Below are positions 1-13,965 of a stretch of DNA of 13,965 nucleotides, in pieces; positions within the stretch are counted from its first letter, which is position 1; each line of letters begins with the position of its first letter. The position numbers and the translations under genes were made by a program. The DNA comes from Promethearchaeota archaeon (lineage in GTDB: Archaea > Asgardarchaeota > Lokiarchaeia > Sigyniarchaeales > SOKP01). The stretch covers positions 1 through 13,965 of the forward strand of contig JAEOTS010000138.1 of NCBI GenBank assembly GCA_016839745.1. The letters are read 5' to 3'. The notes below the pieces were generated by a model that searched no databases, was not told the DNA's origin, and was given only the letters and a program-made list of their open reading frames with translations.

Positions 1-210
1 AGCTTTAATTGTTAAGGCATCCGAAAAATATTCGTTTAATAGAACGATTTTTTCAACTATGCCAATTAAATATCCTTCAATTGATTTTGTAGACACAAAT
101 AAACCCTTTTTAACAAATATCCCATCTTTTCTCTTGTTTATTACAAATGGATATTTCATAACATCAGGTAATTGAAGAAAATTAAAAACAATACCAAGCT
201 TTAAAGACAT
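1..210 (-). CDS. Partial (5' end) CDS, possibly the N-terminal HAS-barrel of a HerA/DUF87-family ATPase
   Basis: ATG at 210-208 opens 70 stop-free codons running off the window edge: MSLKLGIVFNFLQLPDVMKYPFVINKRKDGIFVKKGLFVSTKSIEGYLIGIVEKIVLLNEYFSDALTIKA. The 'LGIV...VKKGLFV...GYLIGIVEKI...NEYF' pattern resembles HAS-barrel beta strands. The ATPase domain is not visible, so the product call is tentative. Confidence 0.55.
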   Translation of the reverse strand, partial: MSLKLGIVFNFLQLPDVMKYPFVINKRKDGIFVKKGLFVSTKSIEGYLIGIVEKIVLLNEYFSDALTIKA

Positions 211-231
211 TGATTTAGGTAAGAATAAAAG

Positions 232-239
232 TTAATAAA
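232..239 (-). promoter_or_regulatory. Candidate archaeal TATA box for the partial CDS at 1-210
   Basis: TTTATTAA on the minus strand, 22-29 nt upstream of the ATG, a spacing typical of leaderless archaeal transcripts. The AT-rich background lowers specificity. Confidence 0.35.
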
Positions 240-299
240 AAGAAGATAAGTGATAGAATTTACTGATTTTAAAAATATTAGTTTGCGTTAAAAATAAGG

Positions 300-309
300 A
301 AAAAAAAAA
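300..309 (-). terminator. Poly-U archaeal terminator
   Basis: Run of 10 T on the minus strand just after the stop of the 317-910 gene. Confidence 0.5.
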
Positions 310-316
310 TTAAATT

Positions 317-910
317 CTATTTCTCTAATTTTCCCATAACTCTTAGTATTACATAATATCCATTTTTCCAGAAGTAAATCATAAATAATGTAACAGCTAA
401 AACTGCAAATAACGAGGCTCCTGCGAATAAAATCCAATTTCCAGCTGAAAAAGAATCTAAAAATGCAGAAAAAGGGGTACTAGTAGAACCAGGCAAAAGA
501 TCTTGAATTATTGAGATTACCACGCCTATAATAATTGCCATTATACTTATTAAAAGACCCCCAGCAGCAATTTTAACATCAATACGATTTTTATACTTCT
601 CCTCAATTTCTCTTACATTGAAAATGAAGTGTAACACCCATTTTCTTCCTTTTTTAAATAATCCAAAGAAAAATATCAAAAGAAAAAACAGTCCTGCTAA
701 AATTCCTGCGATTATAGCAATTTGGGATCCTAAACTCAACCTTAGGAAAGTTTCTAACTTCCCAGTTGGCATGAGAAAGTCAAATATTGACCAGATACCT
801 CCCGTAATGCAAGTCAAGCAAGCAAGAACGATAAAAATGTAAAATATATTCCCTACTACTCTTTGGTTTGAAGGATAAATTTCTTCAGAACCTGAATATG
901 ATTCTTCCAT
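317..910 (-). CDS. Hypothetical integral membrane protein, about 4 TM helices, two-fold internal repeat
   Basis: Four hydrophobic segments separated by a basic cytoplasmic loop (KKGRK...EEKYKNR). ATG at 910 preferred over the GTG at 919 used by the ORF track. Confidence 0.8.
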   Translation of the reverse strand: MEESYSGSEEIYPSNQRVVGNIFYIFIVLACLTCITGGIWSIFDFLMPTGKLETFLRLSLGSQIAIIAGILAGLFFLLIFFFGLFKKGRKWVLHFIFNVREIEEKYKNRIDVKIAAGGLLISIMAIIIGVVISIIQDLLPGSTSTPFSAFLDSFSAGNWILFAGASLFAVLAVTLFMIYFWKNGYYVILRVMGKLEK

Positions 911-1014
911 TTTTTTCACTATTCTATTATATTTAAGAAATTTATAACATTCTAAATATATAAAATTGAGTATTATAGCTAAGATTTAAATAGAAACATA
1001 AAAAAATAAATATT

Positions 1015-2553
1015 TTAATCAGATCCTTTATTTTGAAGCGTTTCGATGTAACATTTATGAAAATCCTTTTCATTTAGGATTGAATATAACTCGCTCGATA
1101 ATTTATATATTTTACTATAAACTTTCTGACGATTCTCATCTGGGATCCATTTTTTATCCACTTTACATATATTTTCAGCAGCGCTAACAACATCTGAAAA
1201 CAGCCCTGCACCACTTGCAGCTAAAATTGCAGTTCCTAAAGATGTGGCTTCCTCAATCACATTTCTAACGCAAGTCATTCCTAAAACATCAGAGTAAACT
1301 TGATTCCAAAAATCTGAGCGAGATCCTCCTCCAGTAAGCTTTAATTCTTTTGGCTCCAATCCTAATTCTCTAAAAACTTCGATATTTTTTTTGACCTCAA
1401 AAGCTACTCCTTCTAATATAGAGCGGACAATATCTCTTCTTTTATGACCTAATGATAACCCATATATCAAACCTCTCGCATATGGATTCCAATGTGGTGC
1501 CCCAGCACCGACTAAATGAGGAATTGCTAATAACTTATTAGCACCAATGGGTGATTTTTCTGCTTCTTCTGTTAAAATATTATATGGATCTTGATTTTGT
1601 TCTTCAGCTATTGTGCATTCTTCTTTTCCTAACTCGTCTCTAAACCACCTTAAAAAAGCACCAGTAGTAAAAATACTCGCTTCTTGAACCCATGCGCCAG
1701 GAATTGCGTGACAACTACATAATACTCTCTTCTTTGGATCAAAATTAGGTTTTTCCAGATACGCTAACAAAAAACTTCCAGTTCCCGTGGTTAATTTTAC
1801 CTTACCTGGAGAGACAACTCCTACTCCCAACGCTGCTGATTGTTGGTCTCCCGCTCCTGAAACAACCAAAGTTTTTTTATCAAATAAAATTTCTTCGGTA
1901 CTAATTTCTCCTATCTCAATTCCGCTTTCGATCGTTTCTGGCATCTTATCCAAATCTAGTTCTAATTCCGAAGCGATGTCTTCTGAGTATTTGAAATGGT
2001 TAATATCAAATAACATTGTTCTTGAAGCGTTAGAATGATCTGTGTAAAATTTCCCCGTCAACTTATAAATTATATAATCCGAAACTAGTAGGAATTTATG
2101 CGTCTTTTGATAAATCTCCGGTTTTTCGTCTTTAAACCAAAGAATTTTGGTTGCTGAAAAATAAGGGTCTATCGTTAATCCTGTTGTCCGATAAATTTTG
2201 TCTATACCTACTTTACTCTTTATAAAATCTACTTGGTCTGTAGTGCGTCTATCTTGCCAAACTAACGCATTATAAAGTGGATTGCCTTCTATATCAACAG
2301 GCACAATAGTTTCTCGCTGATTTGTTACAGAAAGACTCACAATCTCCGATTTATCGATTCCACTCCTTTTAATAGCAACTTCAGTGGTTTCTTTAATAGA
2401 TTCCCACCATAAATTCGCATCCTGTTCCACATATGACGGTTGGGGATAAAAGCTTTCCCACTCTTGATAACCACTAGCTAAAATTGATCCTGCCAAATCA
2501 AAAATATAAGTCCTGCATCCCGTAGTTCCAAGGTCAAGTGCGGCAACATACAT
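1015..2553 (-). CDS. FGGY-family carbohydrate kinase (xylulokinase/glycerol kinase-like)
   Basis: DLGTTG phosphate motif, VEQDA, TNQRET, WQDRRT, DHSNASRTMLF, GDQQSA, GTGSF, GAPHW and GGGSRS motifs. The substrate cannot be determined. Confidence 0.95.
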   Translation of the reverse strand: MYVAALDLGTTGCRTYIFDLAGSILASGYQEWESFYPQPSYVEQDANLWWESIKETTEVAIKRSGIDKSEIVSLSVTNQRETIVPVDIEGNPLYNALVWQDRRTTDQVDFIKSKVGIDKIYRTTGLTIDPYFSATKILWFKDEKPEIYQKTHKFLLVSDYIIYKLTGKFYTDHSNASRTMLFDINHFKYSEDIASELELDLDKMPETIESGIEIGEISTEEILFDKKTLVVSGAGDQQSAALGVGVVSPGKVKLTTGTGSFLLAYLEKPNFDPKKRVLCSCHAIPGAWVQEASIFTTGAFLRWFRDELGKEECTIAEEQNQDPYNILTEEAEKSPIGANKLLAIPHLVGAGAPHWNPYARGLIYGLSLGHKRRDIVRSILEGVAFEVKKNIEVFRELGLEPKELKLTGGGSRSDFWNQVYSDVLGMTCVRNVIEEATSLGTAILAASGAGLFSDVVSAAENICKVDKKWIPDENRQKVYSKIYKLSSELYSILNEKDFHKCYIETLQNKGSD

Positions 2554-2636
2554 GATTGATAATTCTCTTATAATTTTTATTTTAAGTGATAAGTTACAGA
2601 TGGGATCATAAAATAAAAATAATTATTATACATTGT

Positions 2637-2646
2637 AAAAAAAAAA
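2637..2646 (-). terminator. Poly-U archaeal terminator
   Basis: Run of about 10 T on the minus strand directly after the stop of 2650-3327. Confidence 0.5.
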
Positions 2647-2649
2647 GTT

Positions 2650-3327
2650 TCATTTGACTCTTTTAAACCCGCACCGTTTACAAACTAGCCCAACTTCAGG
2701 AGCATAAACCTCTGTTAGTGGACCGTTACAATTTGGACATTTTACATCAAAAGTTGGAAACCATTGTCCCTTGATGTTAGGCATTTGCTTCAAAGTGTTA
2801 ATAAACTGCACTCTTTCTAAATCTTTCTCATTAATTTGAAGCATCTGTTGTTCTTCAGCAATAGATTTTCCTTTAGGTGCTAAAACCATTAAAAATTTCA
2901 TTTTTTTCGGATTGTTTAGTAGTGATAATGTTCGCAATATAGCTCCTTCTTTGTATTGTTCAAATAATTTAGCTAATTCCGGAGGTGCTAATGCTACTAA
3001 TGTTGCTTGTGAATCCTTAAATTCGCTTTTAACTTTTTGAATGAGAATTTGGAAAATTCTGCGTTCACTGTCCATTCCCCATATAAGATTCCACGGTGTT
3101 ATGTCATAATCCTCCTTATCAGGACCAACGATTCTTTTAATACTTTCAACCCAAGAATAATGCTTGAAATTATACATATTAGAGAGCAAATCATCAAAGA
3201 ATCCCGGTTCAATTACGGGAAATGTTTTAATTATATTTTTCAGTGATAACAATTTAACTTGGGTCAAAATTTTTGTGTTAAGATTGTCCCACGGCGTATA
3301 TGTGAAAACTGAAAAGAAATTGCTCAT
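2650..3327 (-). CDS. Hypothetical protein with C-terminal C4 zinc ribbon
   Basis: 225 aa with CPNC-x15-CKRCG at the C-terminus. The N-terminal ~195 aa are not recognised. Confidence 0.8.
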   Translation of the reverse strand: MSNFFSVFTYTPWDNLNTKILTQVKLLSLKNIIKTFPVIEPGFFDDLLSNMYNFKHYSWVESIKRIVGPDKEDYDITPWNLIWGMDSERRIFQILIQKVKSEFKDSQATLVALAPPELAKLFEQYKEGAILRTLSLLNNPKKMKFLMVLAPKGKSIAEEQQMLQINEKDLERVQFINTLKQMPNIKGQWFPTFDVKCPNCNGPLTEVYAPEVGLVCKRCGFKRVK

Positions 3328-3459
3328 GATCTTTTAAATCAAATATAAAATATCCTTTTAATTTTACTATTTATGATGGAATAATGGTTTAAATTATAAA
3401 AATAAGATTTAAGAAAAATTACTCTTATACTTTTATTAAATATTAAACGAGATCATTAT

Positions 3460-4611
3460 ATGAGTGGAATTTGGGATAAGAAAGCTGATGCAATAAAAAA
3501 AGGAGATAACCTTAGGGATGTTTCATTTCTTATCGATAAAACTCTGAAGGATGAAAAGGGTTTTACTCATTACATCTTTAGTAAAGCTAATTTTCATAAT
3601 CCTTGGTATGCTATACCGGAAGACGATTTCAAATTGTTTGAAACCTTTATTGAAGGGGGATCTAGAGCGTATCCATCTGATGGTAGCATACCCTGTGATG
3701 TAGTAGCGAGTGAAGCGAGAAAAGTTCTCAAGAAAATTGAACTTTGTTCGCAAGATCCTAATCACCATTATTGTGAAGATGCTCGTGAAGTATTAAAAAA
3801 CGGGAAATTTTCGTTAGTTAGAGGTACGTTAAAACTCTATTTAGGCAAATATACCACCCGGGATTGGAGAAGGAAAAGATTTACAGACGATATCGATTTT
3901 TGGATGTTTAAGACCAATTTATTGGACTCTTCTTTGAAGGAATGCAGTTTTGTAAAAGATAAAGAAACAGGAGAATGGGAAAAAACTGTAGAGTGGAATA
4001 AATTTGAAACTAAAGAAAATAGGCATGAAACTCTTTTTGCTGCGAATAACCTTAATCAATTACTCGATTTTGGAGCTGGTAGTTATCTCACTGGTTCAAG
4101 TTTAAAAGAAATTTTTGATAAAAAAATTAAAAGAGGTCACGATGTAGATTTAAGCGATATTATTAATGTAGCAATGGTGAACAATGGTGTTGATGGTATA
4201 CACAAAGATGAGTGGTTAGATGCATGGAGTTCTTTTGAACAGGCTGCTAATACGCGAAATACTAGAACCACTTCTAATTTAATAAGTATTTGCCGCTATT
4301 CCTTAGCAATTGCAGACCACCTTGAAAAAGTCGGCGAGGCTATTAGAAAATATAAAGGTCATATTTTAGATAAATCTAAATATCCAGACGAGAAAATAAA
4401 ATCCCTCTGTAGTATCTCTACTCATTGGCAAAAATTTTATAATGCTAACGGAGTAGGTGAAACAAGAAAGGTTATTCATGATTTTTACGAAGAACAAGCA
4501 GAAGAGAAACCAGTGCATGCACAAAACCTAAGAAAATTTGCAAAGAGTATACTAAAATTACTTAATTCCAAATACGAATATCTTAAGGTTACATTCGAAA
4601 TTGAGCTTTAA
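3460..4611 (+). CDS. Uncharacterised protein, putative Pol-beta-superfamily nucleotidyltransferase (AbiEii/DUF1814/DUF6036-like)
   Basis: FSLVRGT (aa117-123), RFTDDIDF (D144-x-D146) and KKIKRGHDVDLSD (aa221-233) match the hhhGGx...RxTxDhDh...KxxxxRxKDxxD motif order. The CDS itself is solid; the family call is by eye. Confidence 0.65.
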   Translation: MSGIWDKKADAIKKGDNLRDVSFLIDKTLKDEKGFTHYIFSKANFHNPWYAIPEDDFKLFETFIEGGSRAYPSDGSIPCDVVASEARKVLKKIELCSQDPNHHYCEDAREVLKNGKFSLVRGTLKLYLGKYTTRDWRRKRFTDDIDFWMFKTNLLDSSLKECSFVKDKETGEWEKTVEWNKFETKENRHETLFAANNLNQLLDFGAGSYLTGSSLKEIFDKKIKRGHDVDLSDIINVAMVNNGVDGIHKDEWLDAWSSFEQAANTRNTRTTSNLISICRYSLAIADHLEKVGEAIRKYKGHILDKSKYPDEKIKSLCSISTHWQKFYNANGVGETRKVIHDFYEEQAEEKPVHAQNLRKFAKSILKLLNSKYEYLKVTFEIEL

Positions 4612-4663
4612 TTTTCAAATTATAAAATAAAAGTTTAATAATTTGTGTTTTAATTTTTCAAAC

Positions 4664-4960
4664 ATGACTCAATTTAAGATTGTAATTAAAAAAAGTTGCT
4701 TTTTCTGTGAAATGTTATTGACTTGGCTTAAGGATAAAAATATTGATTATAAAGTTTTAGACTACCAAGATCCTAAAGATTTTGACGATCCTTTAATGAA
4801 AAATCCTACATTTAATAGCCTTTATTGTGATATGAGTGCCTGTGTTGAAAGTTTACCGCTAATAGTAAAAAACGATAAAGAGTTCTTCTACAGCGAAATT
4901 TGGGACCTAGTTAACAACACAATAGTAGAAGAAAAAGCTAAAAAGATTTTTGAAATCTAA
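4664..4960 (+). CDS. Glutaredoxin/NrdH-like thioredoxin-fold protein
   Basis: MTQFKIVIKKSCFFCEML (strand-CxxC-helix), LKDKNIDYKVLD and cis-Pro motif SLPLIV. ATG at 4664 preferred over TTG at 4643. Confidence 0.8.
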   Translation: MTQFKIVIKKSCFFCEMLLTWLKDKNIDYKVLDYQDPKDFDDPLMKNPTFNSLYCDMSACVESLPLIVKNDKEFFYSEIWDLVNNTIVEEKAKKIFEI

Positions 4961-4982
4961 TGTGATTTATTTGTTCTACTAG

Positions 4983-5006
4983 TTCGTGAAACTGAACTTT
5001 CACGAA
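4983..5006. repeat. Perfect 9-bp inverted repeat (possible bidirectional terminator hairpin or protein-binding site)
   Basis: TTCGTGAAA-CTGAAC-TTTCACGAA, between the convergent glutaredoxin and MFS genes. Confidence 0.6.
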
Positions 5007-5106
5007 ATTAAATATATCTTTCCAAAATACCTCAATATAGCTCTCGATATTACACCTCTAAATTTCAAAAATTAGTTTAAATACAATTAGATAAAAGAAT
5101 TGTTTT

Positions 5107-6378
5107 TTATTCAATTATTTTTTCTCTCAATTCTAATCCTAATTCTTCTACCAAAGTATCAGTTTTTTTAGTAAGCCGTTTTTTTGTAACTCCATTAAGG
5201 ATCCAAAAACCAAAGATTGCAATCAAGCATAAAATTCCCGCAATGTACCATACCCAATTCGGTCCAATATAAAAATAGACAAAACTAGCCCCTGAAACTC
5301 CAAATAAAGTTGGAATGGACCAATGAAAGCCGTAAACTGCCATATATCTACCTCGCTTATCTTCAGAAGCAAATCGTGCAACAGTAGCTTGCGAAACTGG
5401 TATTACAATCATTTCCCCAACTGTTAGAATAGCCATCGCGACGAAAAACAAGTACCATTCAGAGACAAAACCATACATCCCAAAACCAAACATATAAAGA
5501 AGTGTACCTAGAGCCATCATTTTCATAGGTGCATACTTTGCAGTCCTTCTTGTGATCCAGAACTGGAGTGCTACTACCATCAAAGCATTCATACTTAGTA
5601 AAGCTCCAAACCACTCTAATGGGAAATTGTAAACTTTCCATAAAAATACCGATAATGTACTGTTCATTTGCATGTAAACTAACACCGTCAAAGCAGATAC
5701 AGCGAGAAAGAGAATGAAAACATAATCTTTTACTACTTCTATGTAACCTATTAGCGTTTTCCCTATCGATTCTTCGGGTTCATCATCTTGTTTTTCCGGT
5801 TTCGTTTCAGGGATAACAATGAATACAATTAATGCAGTTATTAAACTACTGACAGCATCTGATACAAACAATATCAAATAAGAATATCTATATAGCATTC
5901 CCCCAAGAATCGGACCTCCTACTGCTGAAAGATTTACAGCTACTCTTAATAATCCAAATCCATCAGCTCGTTTATCTTCTGGAAGTAAATCTACAACCAT
6001 TGCTTGCCGTGCTGGACCTCCTAAATCACCTAAAACGCCTAAAACTGCTGCTATTATGAAAAAAAGATATAAATCATTAACTATTCCCATCAGGATACTT
6101 CCAATACCACTTGAAATTAATCCGAAAAGTAGCATCGACCGACGACCATATTTATCAGTTAATGCACCTCCTATCGTACTACCAATTATGCTTCCAAGCG
6201 CAAATATAAAAAATAAAACTCCTACCTCTACTATTGTCACATTAAAATGATCGATAAGATATACTGAAAAAAAGGGAAATAATAAGAAACCTCCTAACCT
6301 ATCAATGAAAGTGGCAAAAACCAATACTATAAATGGCTTTGGGTACTTCTTATATTTCTTTTTACCTTCTGTAAGCAT
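5107..6378 (-). CDS. MFS transporter (drug/H+ antiporter-like, MdtH/DHA1 type)
   Basis: About 12 TM helices, MFS motif A GALTDKYGRR, GPILGG, and EDKRGRYM in the C-terminal half. Confidence 0.93.
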   Translation of the reverse strand: MLTEGKKKYKKYPKPFIVLVFATFIDRLGGFLLFPFFSVYLIDHFNVTIVEVGVLFFIFALGSIIGSTIGGALTDKYGRRSMLLFGLISSGIGSILMGIVNDLYLFFIIAAVLGVLGDLGGPARQAMVVDLLPEDKRADGFGLLRVAVNLSAVGGPILGGMLYRYSYLILFVSDAVSSLITALIVFIVIPETKPEKQDDEPEESIGKTLIGYIEVVKDYVFILFLAVSALTVLVYMQMNSTLSVFLWKVYNFPLEWFGALLSMNALMVVALQFWITRRTAKYAPMKMMALGTLLYMFGFGMYGFVSEWYLFFVAMAILTVGEMIVIPVSQATVARFASEDKRGRYMAVYGFHWSIPTLFGVSGASFVYFYIGPNWVWYIAGILCLIAIFGFWILNGVTKKRLTKKTDTLVEELGLELREKIIE

Positions 6379-6548
6379 AATTGAATCGTTAAGTAATTGA
6401 ATAACATAATTTCATTTATGGATTTCTGGTCTTTAAAAACACCATATTCCCCATAAACTAATGATAAATTTAATAATTGTAAACTAATAAATTTTAGACT
6501 ATCTATTATTTTTATTGAGCATTAAAAAATATTTAGGGAGAAGTAAAA

Positions 6549-7793
6549 ATGTTTGATTATTTAATAAGTGAAGATGCCAAAAAGATAAAAGAAGAGGTAC
6601 GTGCATTCGTAAGAGACGAAGTTCCTCATTCCTTAATTAAACAAATGGATAAAGAAGAAATTAATTATCCAACCGAGTTCTTACAGAAACTCGGTAAAAA
6701 AAATCTTATAGGATTAAGGTTCCCTAAGGAATTCGGTGGTCGAGGCTTAAATTGGGAGTGTGAGGTTGTTGCTCTTGAAGAAATAGGGGTATTAGGGAGC
6801 TCTCTACCGTGTTTATATTCTCTTCCTATAATTACTGGAGAAGCCATGAATTTATTTGGTTCTGAGGACCAGAAGGTAAATTACTTGAAGCCGATGTGTG
6901 AAGGTAAAAAATATACCGCAGAAGCGTTAACAGAACCAAGAGGAGGGTCTGATTTTTTTGGCGCAACTTGCACTGCTGTTAAAGATGGCGATTATTATAT
7001 ATTAAACGGGGAGAAACGTTTTGTTGTGGGGGCTGAAGGAGCTGATTTTTTTCTAGTTTATGCTAAAACCAACCTAGATCCTAAATCTGATCCTCGATCA
7101 TCACTCAGTTTATTTATTGTAGATCGTAGTAAGGGTGTTGAGACTGAATACATATATGGACTTCTTGGAACAAGAGGAGGTGGCGCAGGAAGACTCAAAT
7201 TTGAAGACGTTCAAGTTCCTAAAGAAAATATCATTATGGGAGAAGGGAAGGGAGGATTAATTTTTTATCAAATGATGGTCCCCGAACGTCTTACAACTGC
7301 ATCGGGTTCATTAGGATCGGCCAGAACATGTCTTCATATTGCTACTAAGTATTCGACAAAAAGAAAAGCATTTGGACAGACAATTAAAAACTTTCAAGCC
7401 GTGAATTTTAAAATAGCTGATAGTATTACGCTTTTAGACGCAGCGAGATCAATCGTTTTAAATACCGCTAGAACGATTGATGCTGGAGCACCAGCCGCTT
7501 TGCAGAGAAGACTGGTATCAGAATCTAAAAAATTCTCTACTAAAGCCTGCTGGAAAATTATAAACAATGCAATGCAAGTAATGGGGGGAATTGGGTATAC
7601 TACTGTTTACCCCATCGAAAGAATACTGCGGGATTCAAGACTTGGGGAACTGTGGACTGGGACAACAGAGATAATGTCCCTCATAATACAACATGAATAT
7701 TATAAAGAAATCCTCAGCGAGAAATGGTTTGATAGAGATGTAGAAAAAGACGCTATTGCCGCTGATCATGAAGAGGAAAAATATTTTGGTTGA
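6549..7793 (+). CDS. Acyl-CoA dehydrogenase
   Basis: [40 protein letters not shown] and GTTEIM motifs. GGGAG SD-like sequence upstream. Confidence 0.95.
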
Positions 7794-7820
7794 AAGCTAT
7801 ACTTGAAAATTTTCCTCAAC

Positions 7821-7828
7821 TTTTTTTT
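7821..7828 (+). terminator. Poly-U archaeal terminator
   Basis: T8 run about 28 nt after the acyl-CoA dehydrogenase stop, in a convergent intergenic gap. Confidence 0.45.
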
Positions 7829-7837
7829 AATTTACAT

Positions 7838-8764
7838 TTATAATGTAGTCCATATTGGATTTCTAGTAAGCCAAATCTTTTCTGTAATCTTATATTTATC
7901 AAATTTGTTCCAATTTACGTAAAAAATCTGGTTATCACTAAGATCTGCAGTATTTAATGTTGAAATGAATTTGAGATCGTCTAATCTTTTAATCCTATTA
8001 TTGCTAAGCCATAAATCCTTTAAACTCTTAAGGGTATCAATATTCTTTAGTTCGTAAATTTGATTGTTTTCAAGATATAGTTCGATTAACTTCGAAAGAT
8101 TCTCGAGTCCTTTTATTTCTGTAATTTTATTATCATTAAGGTTCAATTTTTCTAAATTTTTAAGATTCTCAAGTCCCTTTATTTCTGAAATCTGATTTCC
8201 GCGAAGGTATAATTTATCTAGATTTGTTAGGGTTTCAAGTCCTTTTATTTCTGTAATTTGATTGTTCTGAAGACCTAAAAGTTTTAATTTGGATAACGAT
8301 TCCAGTCCTTTAATTTCCGAAATCTGATTAATTTCTGAAGAACCAATATACTTTTTATAATTCCCTATACTAAAAATTTCTAAATTAGTAAGTTTCTTGA
8401 GCCCTTTTATCTCGGAAATCTGATTATTACCAAGATTTAGAATTTTCAATTTTCTTAGTGAATCAATATTTTTTATTTCTTTAATTTGATTCAAATTAAG
8501 GGTTAACCTGACTAAATTGGTAAGATTCTCAAGTCCTTCTATTTCTAAAATCTGATTTCCCGTAAGATCTAGCTCTTCCAAATCTTTTAAATTCTCTAAT
8601 CCCCTAATTTTCGATATTTTACTACCAGTAATTAATAATTTTTTTAAGTTTTTTAGAGATTCCAGCCCTTCGATATCTGAAATGTCACTTAATAGAGAAT
8701 TCTGAATTTTTAATTCTCCATCTCTATTTACCTTATAAGTAATTTCATCGTAAATTACTGGCAT
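7838..8764 (-). CDS. SDS22-like leucine-rich repeat protein
   Basis: About 11 repeats of 22 aa with consensus NQIxEIKGLExLxNLxxLxLxx, ending in a cap-like WLTRNPI. Confidence 0.95.
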   Translation of the reverse strand: MPVIYDEITYKVNRDGELKIQNSLLSDISDIEGLESLKNLKKLLITGSKISKIRGLENLKDLEELDLTGNQILEIEGLENLTNLVRLTLNLNQIKEIKNIDSLRKLKILNLGNNQISEIKGLKKLTNLEIFSIGNYKKYIGSSEINQISEIKGLESLSKLKLLGLQNNQITEIKGLETLTNLDKLYLRGNQISEIKGLENLKNLEKLNLNDNKITEIKGLENLSKLIELYLENNQIYELKNIDTLKSLKDLWLSNNRIKRLDDLKFISTLNTADLSDNQIFYVNWNKFDKYKITEKIWLTRNPIWTTL

Positions 8765-8767
8765 AAT

Positions 8768-9916
8768 TCACTTTTGCTTAGACAAATATCTTATTTTAAC
8801 CAATAAATCTCTTAATTCCATTTTATCATTATCTGTAGTTATATACTTTTTCTTAACGCCTTCAGAAAGAGGAATCATCTCGATTTTATTTCCTTGAAGT
8901 GATACCATGTTACCAAACTTGCCCTCTAATACAAGTGTCATAGCTGCAAGTCCAAATCGTAATCCTAAAATTCGATCGAAAGAGTTGGGCGTTCCTGCTC
9001 GCATCGTATGCCCAAGAACTACACTTCTACACTCAAACTCAACTCCATTATTTTTAAATTCCACTTTTAGATCCTCTCGAAGGTTTAACTCATCAACTAA
9101 TATTTTTGATATATTTAATTTAACGAGTAAAGGATTACCATATGCATCTTTTGGTAATTTAGCGATAGTTGCTTTCGAAATAGTTTTAAAATCTCTTTCT
9201 AACGATTCATTTTTAGGATAAGCACCCTCAGAAGTTGCTATAATGTGGTATGTATATCCCGCATTTACTCTATTTCTAAGTACATCAACAACATCCTTTT
9301 CGAAATCGAATGGCGTTTCAGGAATTAGTATTATATCAGCACCAGCAGAAATTCCACTATACATTGTAAGAAATCCTGCATCTCTGCCCATAATTTCTAC
9401 AACAAAAACTCGTTGGTGCGACCTAGCTGTAGTTGTTAGATTATCCATTGCATTAGAAGCAAGCTGCACAGCGCTCCAGAACCCAAACGTGTAATGTGTC
9501 CCTGCTAGATCATTATCAATCGTTTTGGGACATCCGATTACATTTGCATTTGCGTATTTGCACATAGCGTCGGCAACGCTTAAAGTGTCGTCCCCTCCGA
9601 TCGCGATTAAAGCGTCAATTCCTAATTCTTCTAATTTATCTACCAATACATGAGCAACTTTTTCTTTAGATTCAGCTCCTTTAAATGGATTGGTTCTACT
9701 TGTGTATAATATAGTCCCTCCAATAGTATGTAAATCATCCTGTTCTGCAATATTGAGTGGTATTGTTAAATTTTCTATAAGACCCTTCCAACCTTTAAGA
9801 ATTCCAACACATTCTATTCCTGCGTCATAAGCTTTTAACATTATTCCATAGATTACCGAATTTAAGCCTGGACAATCTCCGCCTCCTGTGAGGATTCCAA
9901 TTTTTTTAATTGTCAT
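8768..9916 (-). CDS. pfp: 6-phosphofructokinase, PfkA family, probably pyrophosphate-dependent
   Basis: TGGGDCPGLN, GGTILYTSR, GGDDT, PKTIDND, EIMGRDAG and LGHTMRAG motifs. GGDD plus Lys in PKTIDND is the PPi signature. Confidence 0.88.
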   Translation of the reverse strand: MTIKKIGILTGGGDCPGLNSVIYGIMLKAYDAGIECVGILKGWKGLIENLTIPLNIAEQDDLHTIGGTILYTSRTNPFKGAESKEKVAHVLVDKLEELGIDALIAIGGDDTLSVADAMCKYANANVIGCPKTIDNDLAGTHYTFGFWSAVQLASNAMDNLTTTARSHQRVFVVEIMGRDAGFLTMYSGISAGADIILIPETPFDFEKDVVDVLRNRVNAGYTYHIIATSEGAYPKNESLERDFKTISKATIAKLPKDAYGNPLLVKLNISKILVDELNLREDLKVEFKNNGVEFECRSVVLGHTMRAGTPNSFDRILGLRFGLAAMTLVLEGKFGNMVSLQGNKIEMIPLSEGVKKKYITTDNDKMELRDLLVKIRYLSKQK

Positions 9917-9993
9917 TTGATTTCACACTTATGATATATCAATTTTAAATATAAGTATCTAATTAGAAATAATGATAATTTCATTTATTACTT

Positions 9994-10563
9994 TTAATTT
10001 AGTTCTTTATTTTCGAATTTTTCAAACGAGTATTTTGATTCATCCGTTGGAATAATATAGCTTCCTCCCCCGGAATCAGTTATTATTAAAGTGAATTTAA
10101 ATTCTCCTTTTGACGCTTTTTGAAGATCCTGTAAAATTTTATCTATTTCCTCTATTTGAACATCGTCATCATCGAGATTTTTGCGATAAATTGAAACAGC
10201 ATTTTCAAATCTAAATAATATGCCTTCCACATTGGTGTAGTAGAAATCTGCGTTTGGACCAGGCTCCACAAATAGTTCCAACTCAGGAATCTCTAATCTT
10301 CCAACGGGGGAACGATAGATTTTTGATTTTAAATCTTTTTCATTCGAAACTCTCAAAGTCATTATTCCTGGAGTATTGTTGGTGGTTAGTGGAATAACAT
10401 CATTATTAGAAAATTCGCAAACATCACATTCAAACTTAATAAGTAACATTTTATCTCCGTCAGGTACGTCATATGTAGTTTTAGTAATTTTTATTTTACC
10501 TTTTTTGCAGGTAGGACATTTGAATGAAAATTCCACTTCTTCATTTTTTGATTTTTCTGACAT
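9994..10563 (-). CDS. Archaeal ZPR1 zinc-finger protein
   Basis: CPTC-x26-CDVC zinc finger followed by the ZPR1 A-domain motifs IPELELFVEPGP, TNVEGIL and FTLIITDSGGGSYI. Confidence 0.92.
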   Translation of the reverse strand: MSEKSKNEEVEFSFKCPTCKKGKIKITKTTYDVPDGDKMLLIKFECDVCEFSNNDVIPLTTNNTPGIMTLRVSNEKDLKSKIYRSPVGRLEIPELELFVEPGPNADFYYTNVEGILFRFENAVSIYRKNLDDDDVQIEEIDKILQDLQKASKGEFKFTLIITDSGGGSYIIPTDESKYSFEKFENKELN

Positions 10564-10728
10564 CGTTAATCACTTTCTATATTTTTGAAGGTTAAATTAC
10601 AGTTATTGTTAATTTTCATCAATTTAAGTGGCGTCCTTATAAATTTTTTCCAGAAATTTTTAATTTATTGCTAGTTACTTTACCTTAATAGTTCTATTTA
10701 CGATAATTTTATAAGTTTTCCAAAAAAA

Positions 10729-10747
10729 AAAACTATATTATAGTTTT
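10729..10747. promoter_or_regulatory. Perfect 19-bp palindrome, candidate transcription-factor operator
   Basis: AAAACTATA-T-TATAGTTTT in the divergent ZPR1/oxidoreductase intergenic region, about 55 bp upstream of the gamma-subunit start. Confidence 0.45.
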
Positions 10748-10802
10748 ACGGCTTTTATTATTATCAAAATTATAAGATCAAATAAATCAAGGATGGAAAA
10801 AA

Positions 10803-11387
10803 TTGACGGATAATGGAATAATAGAAATCACTTTTCATGGTCGAGGGGGTCAAACAGCTATCACTGCTAGTCAACTACTAGCGCAATTGGCTTATGAGGA
10901 AAGTTTTATAGATGCCATTGCAATACCTATTATTGGAGCTGAGAGGAGAGGAGCCCCTATCCAAGCGTTTACTAAGCTATCAAGGAATAAAACGATTAAA
11001 ACATACGATAGCGTAACCGATCCCGATTATATGTTAATTTTTGACCCCTCCCTGTTAGAGATTCCTAGAGTTTTGGAGACAGTAAAAAGTGGAGTTACAT
11101 TATTAATTAATACCAAAAATCCTATCGATACTTGTGAATTTCCCGAAAACATAAAAATTTTTATTGTTGATGCTACAGGAATCTGTATAAAATTAGGATT
11201 TATGCATTCGAGTGGACCGATATTAAACATTCCAATGCTTGGGGCATTTGGACAGTTATCCGGATTTTATAACTTAGACACGATGAAAAAAGTGATCTAT
11301 AGTGAATTTGGAGAGACTAGGGGTAAGAAGAATCTAGAAGTAGCTATCGAGGCTTACAATAATGTTAAGGAGGTTGAATTTGAATGA
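10803..11387 (+). CDS. porG: 2-oxoacid (pyruvate/ketoisovalerate):ferredoxin oxidoreductase gamma subunit
   Basis: HGRGGQ, GAERRGAP, VDATGI and NIPMLGA motifs. TTG start; ATGA overlap with the delta gene. Confidence 0.92.
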   Translation: MTDNGIIEITFHGRGGQTAITASQLLAQLAYEESFIDAIAIPIIGAERRGAPIQAFTKLSRNKTIKTYDSVTDPDYMLIFDPSLLEIPRVLETVKSGVTLLINTKNPIDTCEFPENIKIFIVDATGICIKLGFMHSSGPILNIPMLGAFGQLSGFYNLDTMKKVIYSEFGETRGKKNLEVAIEAYNNVKEVEFE

Positions 11388-11722
11388 CCAAAGTGAAATG
11401 GAAGAACATATGTGAAGATAAGGATAAAAGACCTGAAGTTCAAGAATATAAAAATTGGAAAGAATTACCCCCAATCCCAATATCACTTCCCATAAAAGGA
11501 AGTATTGGAACCACAGGAGATTGGAGAACGTTTAAACCGGTTGTAGATAGAGAAAACTGTACTAAGTGTGGCATTTGTTGGATGTATTGTCCCGAAGGTA
11601 CAATAATCAGAAATGAAGATGGAGAATTTGAAGTAGATTATGTCTATTGTAAAGGTTGTGGCATATGTGCTAAAGAGTGCCCTACAAAAAGTATTGAAAT
11701 GATTAGAGAGAGTGAAGTTTAA
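11384..11722 (+). CDS. porD: 2-oxoacid:ferredoxin oxidoreductase delta subunit (2x[4Fe-4S])
   Basis: TGDWRTFKPVV, CTKCGICWMYCPE and YCKGCGICAKECP. GGAGGT SD upstream. Confidence 0.95.
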   Translation: MTKVKWKNICEDKDKRPEVQEYKNWKELPPIPISLPIKGSIGTTGDWRTFKPVVDRENCTKCGICWMYCPEGTIIRNEDGEFEVDYVYCKGCGICAKECPTKSIEMIRESEV

Positions 11723-11723
11723 T

Positions 11724-12980
11724 ATGGTTGAAGCACAAGAAGATTTTATTCAGGAAAGAGAAACAAAAATAATTAAAGGAAATGTGGCTGCAGCTTACGC
11801 TGCGAAATCTGCAAGGGTCCAAGTGATAAGTGCCTATCCTATTACGCCTCAAACTACTGTGGTAGAAAAATTATCAGAGTTTGCAGATAATGGTGAGATG
11901 CCAGGAACTCAATATATTAAAGTTGAATCCGAACATTCGGTTATGGCTTCAATTATAGGCGCAAGCACTGCAGGGACTCGCACCTTCACTGCTACTTCGG
12001 GACAAGGATTATTTTACATGTATGAGATGGTTCATTGGGCGGCAGGTGCGCGATTGCCCATAGTAACTACCATCGCTTCGAGAGGTCCTGCTCCTCCATG
12101 GAACATTTGGGCAGACTTTACTGATATAATAAGTTGCAGAGATACCGGATGGATGATTTCATTTGCATCAAGTCATCAAGAGATTTATGATGATATTTTA
12201 ATGTCCTATAAAATTAGCGAAGATCACGATATTTTATTGCCTAAATTCGTAGCTTATGGTGGATTTACTCTTTCCCATACATCTAAACCTGTAACCATCG
12301 AGGACCAAGATGATGTCGATGATTTTCTACCACCACTCCCGGATGAGAGAGGATGGCCCCACATTTTTCTCGATCCTGAAAGACCAATGATGCACGGGAA
12401 TTTAATCATGCCATCTGGTTTTTACAACGAATTTAGGTTAAAAATCCATTATACTCATATGCTTGCTAAACAAAAAATTAAGGATGTCGCAGCGGAATTT
12501 GAGAAAAAATTTGGTAGACCATATGGAAATGGGTTAATCGAAGAATATAAAATGAAAGATGCAGAAGTTGCTATACTTAATTATGGTGAACTCGCTATGC
12601 AGATGGAAGAAGCGGTTGATGCTCTTAGGAATGAAGGATATAAGGTGGGATGTGTAAAATTAAGATATTTACGACCCTTTCCCGTTGAAGACATAATTCA
12701 GATTGCTAATAAAGTTAAAGTTCTTGGAGTTGCTGATAGAGCTACTGCGTTTGGATCCCCAACTGGGGGGCCAGTAAGTAGTGAAGTGTTAACAGCTCTA
12801 TACGGTTCTGGAGCAACCACAAAAGTTTTACCAATCGTGATGGGTTTAGGCGGTAGAGAAGTTGGATTAGAACAACAGAAAAATCAATTAAAAGTATTGA
12901 GTAAATTAAGTGAAACTGGAGAACTCCCAAAAGACATGATTGAAGGAACTTTCTGGGATGGATTATTGGAGGTTGATTAA
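11724..12980 (+). CDS. porA: 2-oxoacid:ferredoxin oxidoreductase alpha subunit (POR/VOR, VOR-like)
   Basis: AYPITPQT, VESEHS, RTFTATSGQGL, RPFP and GLGGR motifs. ATG at 11724, 1 nt after the delta stop, preferred over GTG at 11712. Confidence 0.93.
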   Translation: MVEAQEDFIQERETKIIKGNVAAAYAAKSARVQVISAYPITPQTTVVEKLSEFADNGEMPGTQYIKVESEHSVMASIIGASTAGTRTFTATSGQGLFYMYEMVHWAAGARLPIVTTIASRGPAPPWNIWADFTDIISCRDTGWMISFASSHQEIYDDILMSYKISEDHDILLPKFVAYGGFTLSHTSKPVTIEDQDDVDDFLPPLPDERGWPHIFLDPERPMMHGNLIMPSGFYNEFRLKIHYTHMLAKQKIKDVAAEFEKKFGRPYGNGLIEEYKMKDAEVAILNYGELAMQMEEAVDALRNEGYKVGCVKLRYLRPFPVEDIIQIANKVKVLGVADRATAFGSPTGGPVSSEVLTALYGSGATTKVLPIVMGLGGREVGLEQQKNQLKVLSKLSETGELPKDMIEGTFWDGLLEVD

Positions 12981-12982
12981 AT

Positions 12983-13921
12983 ATGGTATCTCTTAAAGAA
13001 GCATTAGAAATAGGACAAGAAGAATATTTTTTAGCAGGGAATTCCACGTGTGCGGGATGTGGTCTTGAAATCGCTTTAAGATGGGCTATGAAAGCACTTG
13101 GACCAAATACATCCTTGGTTACACCAGCAAGTTGTTTAAATGTTGTTGTAGGTTTATGGCCAAAGACAGCACCAAATTTTCCATTTATGAATATGGCATT
13201 TGCAGCAGCTGCAGCTGCGGCAACGGGAGTTTCTGCAGCTTTTAAAGCAAAATCTCATAAATTTCCAGGCAAAATCTGGGAAAAAATGACGACCCTAGTT
13301 TTTGCAGGTGATGGAGGTACTACAGATATCGGAATTCAAGGTTTAAGTGGTGCTGCTGAAAGAAATTCCAATATTATTTATTGTTGTTACGATAACGAAG
13401 CATACATGAATACCGGGATTCAAAGATCTTCTAGTACTCCTCATGGAGCAATAACAACTACAACCACATTAGGAAAGGAACGATACAAGAAAAATTTACC
13501 GAGGATAATGGCAGCACACGAAATCCCTTATGTAGCCACATGTTCTGTAAGCGAACCTCTCGATATCTATGAGAAATTTAAAAAAGCAAAATCAATTGAA
13601 GGATGTAAATACATCCACATTTTAGCTTCTTGTCCTCCTGGATGGGGTATTGCATCCGAAGATTCTATTGAAATACCTCGGTTAGCAGTTAAAACAGGTT
13701 CATGGATTTTATACGAAATCGAAAATGGCGTTTTAACATTATCAAAGAAAAGTAAATCATTATTAGATCCATCAAAAAGAGCTCCGTTAATTGATTACTT
13801 ATCGAGACAAAAACGATTTTCAAAATTGTCTGAAAAAGACTTAATTGAACTTCAAGAAATACTCGATCTTCAGTGGTCTAAAATCGCTGATGAATTATCC
13901 TGCCAAGAAAATCATCAGTGA
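12983..13921 (+). CDS. porB: 2-oxoacid:ferredoxin oxidoreductase beta subunit (TPP-binding)
   Basis: CAGC, TPP motif GDGGTTDIG...DNEAYMNTGIQRS and CPPGW. GGAGGT SD at 12968-12973. Confidence 0.95.
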   Translation: MVSLKEALEIGQEEYFLAGNSTCAGCGLEIALRWAMKALGPNTSLVTPASCLNVVVGLWPKTAPNFPFMNMAFAAAAAAATGVSAAFKAKSHKFPGKIWEKMTTLVFAGDGGTTDIGIQGLSGAAERNSNIIYCCYDNEAYMNTGIQRSSSTPHGAITTTTTLGKERYKKNLPRIMAAHEIPYVATCSVSEPLDIYEKFKKAKSIEGCKYIHILASCPPGWGIASEDSIEIPRLAVKTGSWILYEIENGVLTLSKKSKSLLDPSKRAPLIDYLSRQKRFSKLSEKDLIELQEILDLQWSKIADELSCQENHQ

Positions 13922-13965
13922 AGCCTTTTTGATTATAAAAATTAGCAATAATCCAATTGAATCCA

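Follow-up and report, generated by a model that had tools for sequence, protein, structure and literature searches.

Contig JAEOTS010000138.1 of the Promethearchaeota archaeon assembly GCA_016839745.1 was analysed on its forward strand from position 1 to 13,965, and this whole stretch of 13,965 nucleotides is called the window below. On the plus strand, an open reading frame (ORF) at 3460–4611 encodes a protein of 383 residues (P0001), for which we use the name NT383. Its gene is flanked by a divergently transcribed gene for a Zn-ribbon protein on one side and by a gene for a glutaredoxin-like (Grx-like) protein on the other, and its neighbourhood is one of metabolic genes (Table 1). Judged by its conserved motifs, a profile-profile comparison and its predicted fold, NT383 is probably a highly divergent member of DUF1814 (AbiEii/MenT/JHP933-like) within the polymerase beta (Pol-beta) nucleotidyltransferase (NTase) superfamily, a stand-alone enzyme that would transfer a nucleoside monophosphate (NMP), with an RNA 3′ end as the likeliest acceptor. 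A first-pass annotation of the same DNA had described the protein as a cryptic, divergent DUF1814/AbiEii-like Pol-beta NTase, and this is still the best reading, as motif order, profile-profile comparison and fold agree on it. DUF1814 NTases are known mainly as translation-blocking toxins that extend tRNA ends and are held in check by antitoxins, and Asgard archaea are the archaeal group closest to eukaryotes.

Table 1. Features of the NT383 gene and its surroundings, in window positions (AF2, AlphaFold2 prediction; pLDDT, predicted local distance difference test).
Feature	Positions	Strand	Remarks
NT383 coding sequence	3460..4611	+	Uninterrupted ORF with ATG start, 383 residues; homologues of ~383 residues, n = 494; one copy in its own genome
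N-terminal extension, residues 1–75	3460..3684	+	Family-specific; small beta elements and one helix (AF2)
Loop GGSRxYPSDGxIP, residues 66–78	3655..3693	+	Immediately ahead of the first core helix; ends the region of residues 1–75
Motif I equivalent V-R-G-T, residues 120–123	3817..3828	+	RGT opposite GGT of AbiEii KGGTaL (hhalign)
Basic insert TTRDWRRK, residues 132–139	3853..3876	+	Eight residues, between motifs I and II
Motif II RFTDDIDF, residues 140–147	3877..3900	+	R140, T142 and putative metal-binding D144-x-D146; opposite RFSxDLDF of AbiEii
Motif III/IV equivalent LKEIFDKKIKRGHDVDLSDIINV, residues 215–237	4102..4170	+	K222, R225, H227, D230, D233 and N236
C-terminal helical lobe, residues 249–371	4204..4572	+	Long helices, pLDDT ~90 (AF2)
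Intergenic region, Zn-ribbon gene to NT383	3328..3459	.	132 bp, AT-rich, between divergent genes
Zn-ribbon protein gene	2650..3327	-	225 residues, divergent neighbour; Zn-ribbon Pfam matches at residues 194–220
Grx-like gene	4643..4960	+	105 residues, with CFFC and CDMSAC; 31 nt downstream of NT383
orf200	317..919	-	200 residues
Leucine-rich repeat protein gene	7838..8764	-	308 residues
ZPR1-type gene	9994..10563	-	
2-Oxoacid:ferredoxin oxidoreductase operon	10803..13921	+	Four genes

The 494 homologues were found with a word-indexed search; nearly all of them are 380–394 residues long with 63–92% identity to NT383, and where the source names them they are hypothetical proteins of Lokiarchaeota- or Promethearchaeota-type metagenome-assembled genomes (MAGs). 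When 1.84 billion cluster representatives were searched exhaustively with HMMER, only 39 proteins came back, every one of them a member of the NT383 family or a fragment of a member, and no longer, fused relative of more than 672 residues was found. The most distant full-length member (P0128, 35% identity) has a handful of relatives of its own, and this divergent subclade was included in the 32-sequence alignment, reaching down to ~31% identity, from which conservation was read. All full-length homologues share a common start Met. Invariant columns of the core are R121, G122 and T123, D135 and W136 of the basic insert, R140, T142, D143, D144, D146 and F147, followed by N196, F204, G205, G212, L215, K222, R225, H227, D230, D233 and N236. 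The N-terminal region is conserved at W5, D6, D10, G15, D16 and R19 and invariant at F40, F45, N47 and Y50, as well as at G66, R69, Y71, S73, D74, G75 and P78 of the loop, which are retained even in the ~33%-identity subclade. The motifs singled out by the first-pass annotation, namely RGT at residues 121–123, TTRDWRRKR at 132–140, RFTDDIDF at 140–147 and EIFDKKIKRGHDVDLSDI at 217–234, lie exactly at those residues, and the DxD and the Lys, Arg and Asp positions on which it relied are kept among the homologues; because these motifs coincide with invariant columns of the alignment, they are the conserved core of a real family and not chance strings.

For comparison with DUF1814, 27 canonical PF08843 ORFs extracted from Asgard loci were aligned into an AbiEii profile (consensus vfKGGTaL.k.Y....RFS.DlDF ... 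kidi ... leeil.eK..all.R.....rDlyDiy.i). When the core of NT383 (residues 76–260) was aligned to this profile with hhalign, all four motifs were paired at a score of 26.9 (P 0.0022), with K222 set against the motif III Lys, R225 against the Arg and D230xxD233 against DxxD. The controls gave a mean of 12.5 for 150 column shuffles (standard deviation 2.2, maximum 20.6), a mean of 16.0 for 150 shuffles of 8-column blocks (standard deviation 2.5, maximum 26.4) and a score of 12.4 for the reversed query, so that none of the 300 shuffles reached the real score. Against an alignment of 27 Asgard minimal NTases (PF01909), the NT383 core scored 15.5 and AbiEii 10.7. As no shuffle matched the real score and the PF01909 score was low, the similarity is specific to the DUF1814 branch, although hhalign itself gave it a low probability (13%). 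In the full-length hhalign run the C-terminal motifs were placed on TRNxR..SNLIS, and this placement was rejected, since the divergent subclade does not keep these residues.

The published motifs of the family are hG[G/S]x15DhD for motifs I and II, with an Arg in motif II, KLxAaxxR for motif III and +DxxD for motif IV, a form that replaces the KxxxxRxKDxxD pattern given in the first-pass annotation, and G49 of AbiEii, the first Gly of hG[GS], is essential for toxicity as judged by G49A (Dy et al. 2014, PMC3985639). Motif II of NT383 has the R-x-S/T-x-D-h-D form (R140-F-T142-D-D144-I-D146-F147) in 32 of 32 sequences. The basic insert noticed earlier ahead of the DxD is real: the eight residues before R140 fall into a gap of 8 columns that the AbiEii profile shows in the full-length as well as the core-only hhalign run, are predicted to form a short helix at 134–139 and account for the longer spacing between motifs I and II in NT383, where the gap from G122 to D144 is 21 residues and the published x is 15, although x is counted between other reference points, so that 21 and 15 cannot be compared directly. 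Motif III is present as L215-x-E-I-F-x-x-K222-x-x-R225, aligned to leeIl.eK..all.R, and D230-L-S-D233, aligned to DlyD, is the motif IV candidate; the Lys-to-Arg distance is 3 as against 7 (four shorter) and the Arg-to-Asp distance two shorter than in canonical AbiEii. At motif I, the hhalign alignment has RG in place of GG, R121 standing against the first Gly and G122 against the second; if shifted by one residue, G-T would take the G-[GS]-like reading.

The structure of NT383 was predicted with AlphaFold2 (AF2). A first model, built with close relatives only, gave nothing but CorA-like helical noise in structure searches, and it was replaced by a model to which the 33%-identity subclade had been added (pLDDT 87.3, predicted template modelling score 0.87). 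The replacement model has a helix at 79–98, a strand at 120–121, a helix at 122–128, a strand at 144–147 that carries the DxD, a helix at 152–161, strands at 173–180 and 187–196, helices at 215–225 and 228–240 that hold motifs III and IV, and long helices up to residue 371. This order of elements agrees with an NTase core and, after it, a helical lobe, and the Pol-beta arrangement of strand 120–121, helix 122–128 and D144/D146 on strand 144–147 is found in the model, with match scores that are moderate and not decisive. The Foldseek comparison that the first-pass annotation had called for returned the DUF1814 protein JHP933 (4ok0, 4o8s) as the top three matches in the PDB (E 8e-3 to 1.4e-2, probability 0.95, 16% identity) and nothing at E ≤ 1e-3. 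VIA-align, which is independent of Foldseek, was run on 48,161 representative chains; the tool asks for a Z of 8 and rates lower values as middling. It gave ANT(2'') (Z 7.2, 134 residues), the NTase-like protein 5uvd (Z 7.0, 180 residues), JHP933 (Z 6.1, 185 residues), pol beta (Z 5.8), TglT/MenT3 (Z 5.5, 180 residues), MenT1 (Z 5.5, 155 residues), LnuA (Z 5.3) and MenT4 (Z 5.2, 175 residues). The matches map from about residue 75 on, with root-mean-square deviations of 5.2–7.2 Å for JHP933, TglT, MenT1 and MenT4. Realignment of the Foldseek matches in VIA added pol lambda and DncV at residues 74–213, the range over which ANT(2''), pol beta/lambda, DncV and LnuA fall at Z 4.3–7.2. Because every Z was below 8, the theme was weighed over single scores: many NTases, one mapping, and DUF1814 proteins through two programs. 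Searches further afield resulted in weak leads only from the ESM Atlas, viral clusters with Poly_A_pol_cat in 11–22% of their members, which were not used as support, and in no Foldseek match in the viral BFVD library.

The same alignments redraw the outer parts of the protein. In the DUF1814 matches (JHP933, 5uvd, TglT and MenT4), residues ~76–376 of the model cover nearly complete chains, and for this reason the ~150 residues first described as a C-terminal extension are probably for the most part the standard second lobe, aligned with JHP933, MenT3/TglT and MenT4 to residues 367–376. Counted outward from the first core helix, the N-terminal extension comes to ~75 residues and not the ~115 first given. 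Alignments to NTase structures begin at about residue 75 and do not include it, and in the model it is the part of NT383 without a counterpart in DUF1814 structures; a fused antitoxin domain, which had also been entertained, is not indicated.

The distribution of the gene was examined in a sample of 301 Asgard-phylum genomes, 55 of which gave an NT383 match. Among these are 53 of the 68 genomes of its own GTDB family and the one genome sampled (1/1) from a second family of the same class; no match was found in the 28 other Asgard families sampled, including none in 7 genomes of the sister family of the same order. Within its own genus the gene is present in 15 of 27 genomes and missing from five that are at least 98% complete, and this absence, together with its occurrence in just 1 of the 30 families sampled outside its own, ruled out a universal Asgard housekeeping gene. 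Thirteen genomes hold two NT383 matches, with tandem copies in one of them (G225). In another genome (G125) the match is split over two contigs (C20 and C155), and one of the pieces has an in-frame TAG.

Gene order was compared in 29 loci from the two main genera and in 60 further loci from public MAGs. The conserved block consists of orf200, an FGGY kinase gene and the Zn-ribbon gene, all on one strand and pointing away from NT383, then NT383 itself, in part of the loci the Grx-like gene, a convergent major facilitator superfamily (MFS) transporter gene, and beyond it acyl-CoA dehydrogenase and phosphofructokinase genes. Between genera NT383 is 63–72% identical, which is similar to the MFS gene and below the FGGY kinase (80–85%); these values are the pattern expected of a vertically inherited gene under ordinary purifying selection. 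NT383 is a stand-alone chromosomal gene, vertically inherited at one locus in one Lokiarchaeia-type family, and its stable synteny and metabolic neighbours ruled out a mobile element or a defence island. Five genomes of its own genus have the block intact but for NT383, with the Zn-ribbon and Grx-like genes as direct divergent neighbours. In a tree of the Zn-ribbon neighbour, from which loss was judged in place of a species tree, the five are spread over three positions, and branches with good support require no fewer than two changes, which indicates that NT383 has been lost repeatedly, at least twice within the genus.

Several genes of the window were noted in their own right. The orf200 protein matches no family and resembles only weakly a 2TM type (Saf_2TM, E 0.02), and most loci have it conserved at the border of the block, with 37–87% identity. 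Between the acyl-CoA dehydrogenase and phosphofructokinase genes, the minus strand of the window encodes a protein made up nearly entirely of leucine-rich repeats (internalin-like LRR_4, LRR_8), and farther along the same strand lies a homologue of the ZPR1-type zinc finger (TIGR00340, E 1e-36), whose family is more familiar from eukaryotes. The window closes with the 2-oxoacid:ferredoxin oxidoreductase operon (gamma, delta/ferredoxin, alpha and beta), whose place in ordinary metabolism confirms the housekeeping nature of the neighbourhood. The Zn-ribbon gene has a paralogue of ~150 residues in most genomes, matching its residues ~23–120. One record labelled 'Candidatus Nanopelagicaceae bacterium' (locus L083, DATKTW010000106.1, with protein P0009) carries the Asgard block (orf200, FGGY kinase, Zn-ribbon, NT383, MFS and acyl-CoA dehydrogenase genes) at 76–90% identity to the window; this MAG was probably binned or labelled wrongly. 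Several MAGs of one study labelled as Hermod-, Hod- or Thorarchaeota also carry the block.

Copies of NT383 with 47–65% identity occur at ~18 loci that have no Zn-ribbon gene within 6 kb, and several of these paralogues form basal branches of the NT383 family tree. They are surrounded by genes for a 2-oxoacid:ferredoxin oxidoreductase-like protein, a nitroreductase, NifU, an LPG_synthase_C protein and an AMP-binding enzyme, and no known antitoxin or defence gene was found among these neighbours. At six paralogue loci from two clades (L135, L134, L137, L090, L115 and L098), a Thioredox_DsbH/DUF255 gene of 630–712 residues lies directly upstream on the same strand, with nitroreductase and NifU genes close by; in L135 the 712-residue DUF255 gene (3839–5977) abuts or overlaps the start of NT383. 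A dual-specificity phosphatase gene (DSPc, L116:5441–5875) was seen ~100 nt upstream of one basal paralogue, which has a 777-residue EF-Tu-like GTPase gene downstream; as a single-locus neighbour it is suggestive at most, and of note only since MenT-type enzymes autophosphorylate. NT383 is dispensable, has at times been copied into other housekeeping surroundings and is repeatedly seen coupled to thioredoxin-fold proteins.

The Grx-like protein of the window, which has weak Glutaredoxin (Pfam E 0.006) and NrdH matches, is encoded next to NT383 in about a third to 40% of loci, in two of which (L068, L124) its gene lies upstream instead. In L019 (G255:C1, ~1120–1412) this gene seems to be frameshifted, with two tblastn pieces that meet at residue 42. 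In one homologue (P0121, 480 residues, 57% identity to NT383) the two proteins are fused, residues 385–479 matching the whole Grx-like protein (36% identity, E 3e-16), and the fused part reads CPKS where the Grx-like protein of the window has CFFC. The 90% cluster of P0121 (with P0166–P0172) contains eight members of 480–482 residues on eight contigs, which rules out a chance error in a single assembly. The fusion and the DUF255 neighbour of the paralogues suggest that NT383 may be linked to thiol-redox proteins, and such a link would be facultative, as the Grx-like gene persists without NT383 and vice versa.

The alternative that survives best builds on this link: NT383 would be a redox-coupled, protein-modifying NTase that nucleotidylylates, or is thiol-switched by, its Grx-like or DUF255 partner, and would not act on tRNA. 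The natural fusion, the same-strand Grx-like neighbour, whose adjacency survives the change of order, and the upstream DUF255 gene all speak for it, and the Pol-beta-fold NTases GlnE, GlnD and MntA do modify proteins. Nevertheless, the Grx-like gene is retained where NT383 has been lost, most NT383 loci have no adjacent Grx-like gene, and the fusion, coming from one cluster of at least 90% identity, represents one lineage; adjacency inside one archaeal family may also reflect inherited synteny and not selection, and cysteines conserved in the main clade (such as C79) are not kept in the divergent subclade. On balance we regard this alternative as unlikely.

A classical growth-arresting toxin of a toxin–antitoxin (TA) or abortive-infection system, with the 225-residue Zn-ribbon protein as its unconventional antitoxin or regulator, would agree with the nature of the closest characterised relatives, AbiEii and MenT1–4, which are toxins, with the Zn-ribbon gene being the divergent neighbour in nearly all syntenic loci, and with a gene that is dispensable, was lost two or three times or more within one genus and is present twice in some genomes. 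However, the Zn-ribbon gene is found in 97 of 100 genomes of the family regardless of NT383 and is missing at the paralogue loci; as it persists without NT383 it is a core gene, and the role of dedicated partner or antitoxin was ruled out for it. It is also transcribed divergently, outside any operon, and the locus sits stably among metabolic genes, with no mobile or defence genes and no match to a PADLOC model. The first-pass annotation had seen no adjacent AbiEi or HEPN partner; none was found in any window ORF, and the same holds for other known antitoxin or defence families; nor do the window ORFs contain the bicistronic operon, with an AbiEi or MenA-type antitoxin, of type IV/VII TA systems (AbiE, MenAT). 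An Rfam scan of the window had no match, repeat and small-ORF scans of the flanks of NT383 found no repeat and no small ORF, the 132-bp intergenic region has no ORF of at least 20 residues and no significant repeat, and no candidate for an RNA or peptide antitoxin was seen around the gene in the repeat and small-ORF scans. On balance a toxin of this kind seems improbable. DUF1814 genes are not all linked to antitoxins (PMC7450476), and since stand-alone members have thus been acknowledged before, the missing antitoxin is notable but not unprecedented.

Several results weigh against placing NT383 in DUF1814 at all. Searches of Pfam (including PF08843 at E ≤ 0.1, the comparison that the first-pass annotation had proposed), NCBIfam and PADLOC assigned no family to NT383, so that it is outside PF08843 as currently defined, and phmmer and family-profile hmmsearch runs against PDB sequences gave 0 matches at E ≤ 10. 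A six-frame PF08843 search found no canonical AbiEii in the genome of the window, while such proteins occur in 38 of 201 Asgard genomes. If there is a DUF1814 relationship, it would lie past the reach of comparisons between a hidden Markov model (HMM) and a sequence. In the profile comparison, the hhalign probability itself was only 13%, an Arg occupies the position of the first Gly in motif I, the residue before DxxD is V229 and not a basic one (the nearest basic residue is H227), and the acid of the canonical AbiEii strand ('kIdI') faces L192 and has no conserved counterpart; the conserved positions nearby are N196, which is invariant, and N/D197, and D143 or D230 might serve as a substitute third carboxylate. 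On the structural side, the conserved core of the first AF2 model reached a pLDDT of only 70, the scores of the replacement model are middling (Foldseek E > 1e-3, template modelling (TM) scores of 0.22–0.35, VIA Z < 8), and helical-bundle noise appears at Z values like those of the NTase matches, common arrangements being sufficient for such values by the calibration of the tool.

These points would be explained if NT383 did not have an NTase fold and its motif likeness and weak fold matches were coincidental, the protein having another fold or a non-catalytic role. That every sequence database search was negative, that the structural scores lie in the range that the tool warns may be chance and that NT383 has neither the first Gly of motif I nor the strand acid would be in keeping with such an explanation. 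Against it, four motifs stand in the right order on the right predicted elements and comprise exactly the residues that are invariant in the family, the profile score exceeds the shuffles by far and the PF01909 comparator as well, and two independent structure aligners both return DUF1814 proteins, which leaves coincidence with a low probability, about on a par with that of the toxin. Least probable by far is a small-molecule (antibiotic-type) ANT/Lnu-like NTase working with the neighbouring MFS efflux pump: ANT(2'') is the best VIA-align match, LnuA is also returned, and a Tet-like MFS transporter is the conserved convergent neighbour, but the ANT/Lnu matches span the generic NTase core only, the Arg-bearing motif II and motifs III/IV are DUF1814-specific, hhalign favours AbiEii, and the MFS gene belongs to a long block that persists without NT383 and is missing at the paralogue loci.

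We therefore return to NT383 as a probable divergent, stand-alone DUF1814 NTase. In MenT3, toxicity requires D80, K189 and D211, which come together at the active site, the phosphates of the nucleoside triphosphate (NTP) are contacted by R76, K189, R205 and H207, and S78, like T39 of MenT1, is autophosphorylated to switch the toxin off, both residues being located two positions before the first Asp (PMC7450476, PMC11375011). NT383 has invariant counterparts in R140, T142, D144, D146, K222, R225, H227 and D230/D233, on the strength of which Mg2+-dependent NMP transfer is proposed. In the proposed mechanism, D144 and D146 on the second core strand would bind Mg2+, the R121-G122-T123 turn and R140 would hold the triphosphate, and the NTP pocket would be completed, as by their counterparts in AbiEii and MenT, by K222, R225 and H227 on the following helix and by D230 and D233, where another helix begins. 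The NMP could then be moved from the NTP to a hydroxyl of a macromolecule, most likely the 3′ end of an RNA such as the acceptor stem of a tRNA and less likely a protein. By analogy, the invariant T142, at the autophosphorylation position of MenT, may be a built-in off-switch, which could explain life without an antitoxin.

If NT383 is active, the questions raised are how cells tolerate it when no antitoxin is present, what its target is and whether nucleotidyl transfer and redox state are connected; the conserved Thr would provide a testable answer to the first of these. A more far-reaching proposal is that NT383 represents a new, Asgard-restricted class of DUF1814 in which a toxin was domesticated into a thiol-redox regulator: the N-terminal domain and its loop would let NT383 nucleotidylylate, or be gated by, a thioredoxin-fold protein (Grx-like or DUF255), and autophosphorylation of T142 would replace the antitoxin. 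We consider this proposal doubtful, somewhat more so than redox-coupled protein modification by itself. What is new is a family invisible to the libraries, its N-terminal domain, its compact motif III/IV, its restriction to one lineage with stable synteny and repeated loss, and a natural fusion to a Grx-like protein. Some 500 proteins of Lokiarchaeia-type genomes that are called 'hypothetical' could receive the annotation of DUF1814-like NTases.

With generic Pol-beta NTases (ANT(2''), LnuA, the palm of pol beta/lambda, DncV, PF01909), NT383 shares the alpha/beta core with a DxD on the second strand, to which its hits at residues 74–213 correspond; these proteins lack the motif II Arg and motifs III/IV, and the NT383 score against PF01909 is at background (15.5 vs 26.9 for AbiEii). 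The resemblance to DUF1814/AbiEii (PF08843; S. agalactiae AbiEii of the type IV TA and abortive-infection system AbiE) extends further, to the same R-x-[ST]-x-D-h-D-F pattern in motif II, to the Lys and Arg of motif III and the DxxD of motif IV, which are invariant in NT383 and aligned by hhalign, and to a predicted two-part layout of NTase core and helical C-terminal lobe. NT383 differs from AbiEii in having RGT and not GGT, the 8-residue basic insert, shortened spacings in motifs III/IV and a Val before DxxD, in adding an N-terminal domain of ~75 residues with the GGSRxYPSDGxIP loop, in not being recognised by the PF08843 HMM and in having neither an AbiEi (COG5340) partner nor an operon. 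With M. tuberculosis MenT1, MenT3 (TglT) and MenT4 (8AN4, 6J7N/6Y5U and 6Y56), the predicted fold aligns at Z 5.2–5.5 over 155–180 residues, T142 is aligned with S78 of MenT3 and T39 of MenT1 in R-x-S/T-x-D, and equivalents of the Lys and Asp residues required for toxicity are conserved; NT383 is archaeal, chromosomal and vertically inherited, has no MenA-type antitoxin and is only 11–13% identical to these toxins. JHP933 of H. pylori (4O8S/4OK0) is a protein of 230-odd residues that lacks the N-terminal domain and the insert of NT383 and has low TM scores to it (0.22–0.35), and its gene lies in a plasticity zone, overlapping the upstream gene in a TA-like arrangement (PMC7450476). JHP933 is also the best structural match of MenT3, itself described as bi-lobed (PMC7450476); for NT383 it is the best Foldseek match, it aligns at Z 6.1 over 185 residues spanning most of its chain, and NT383 would have the two-lobed build of JHP933.

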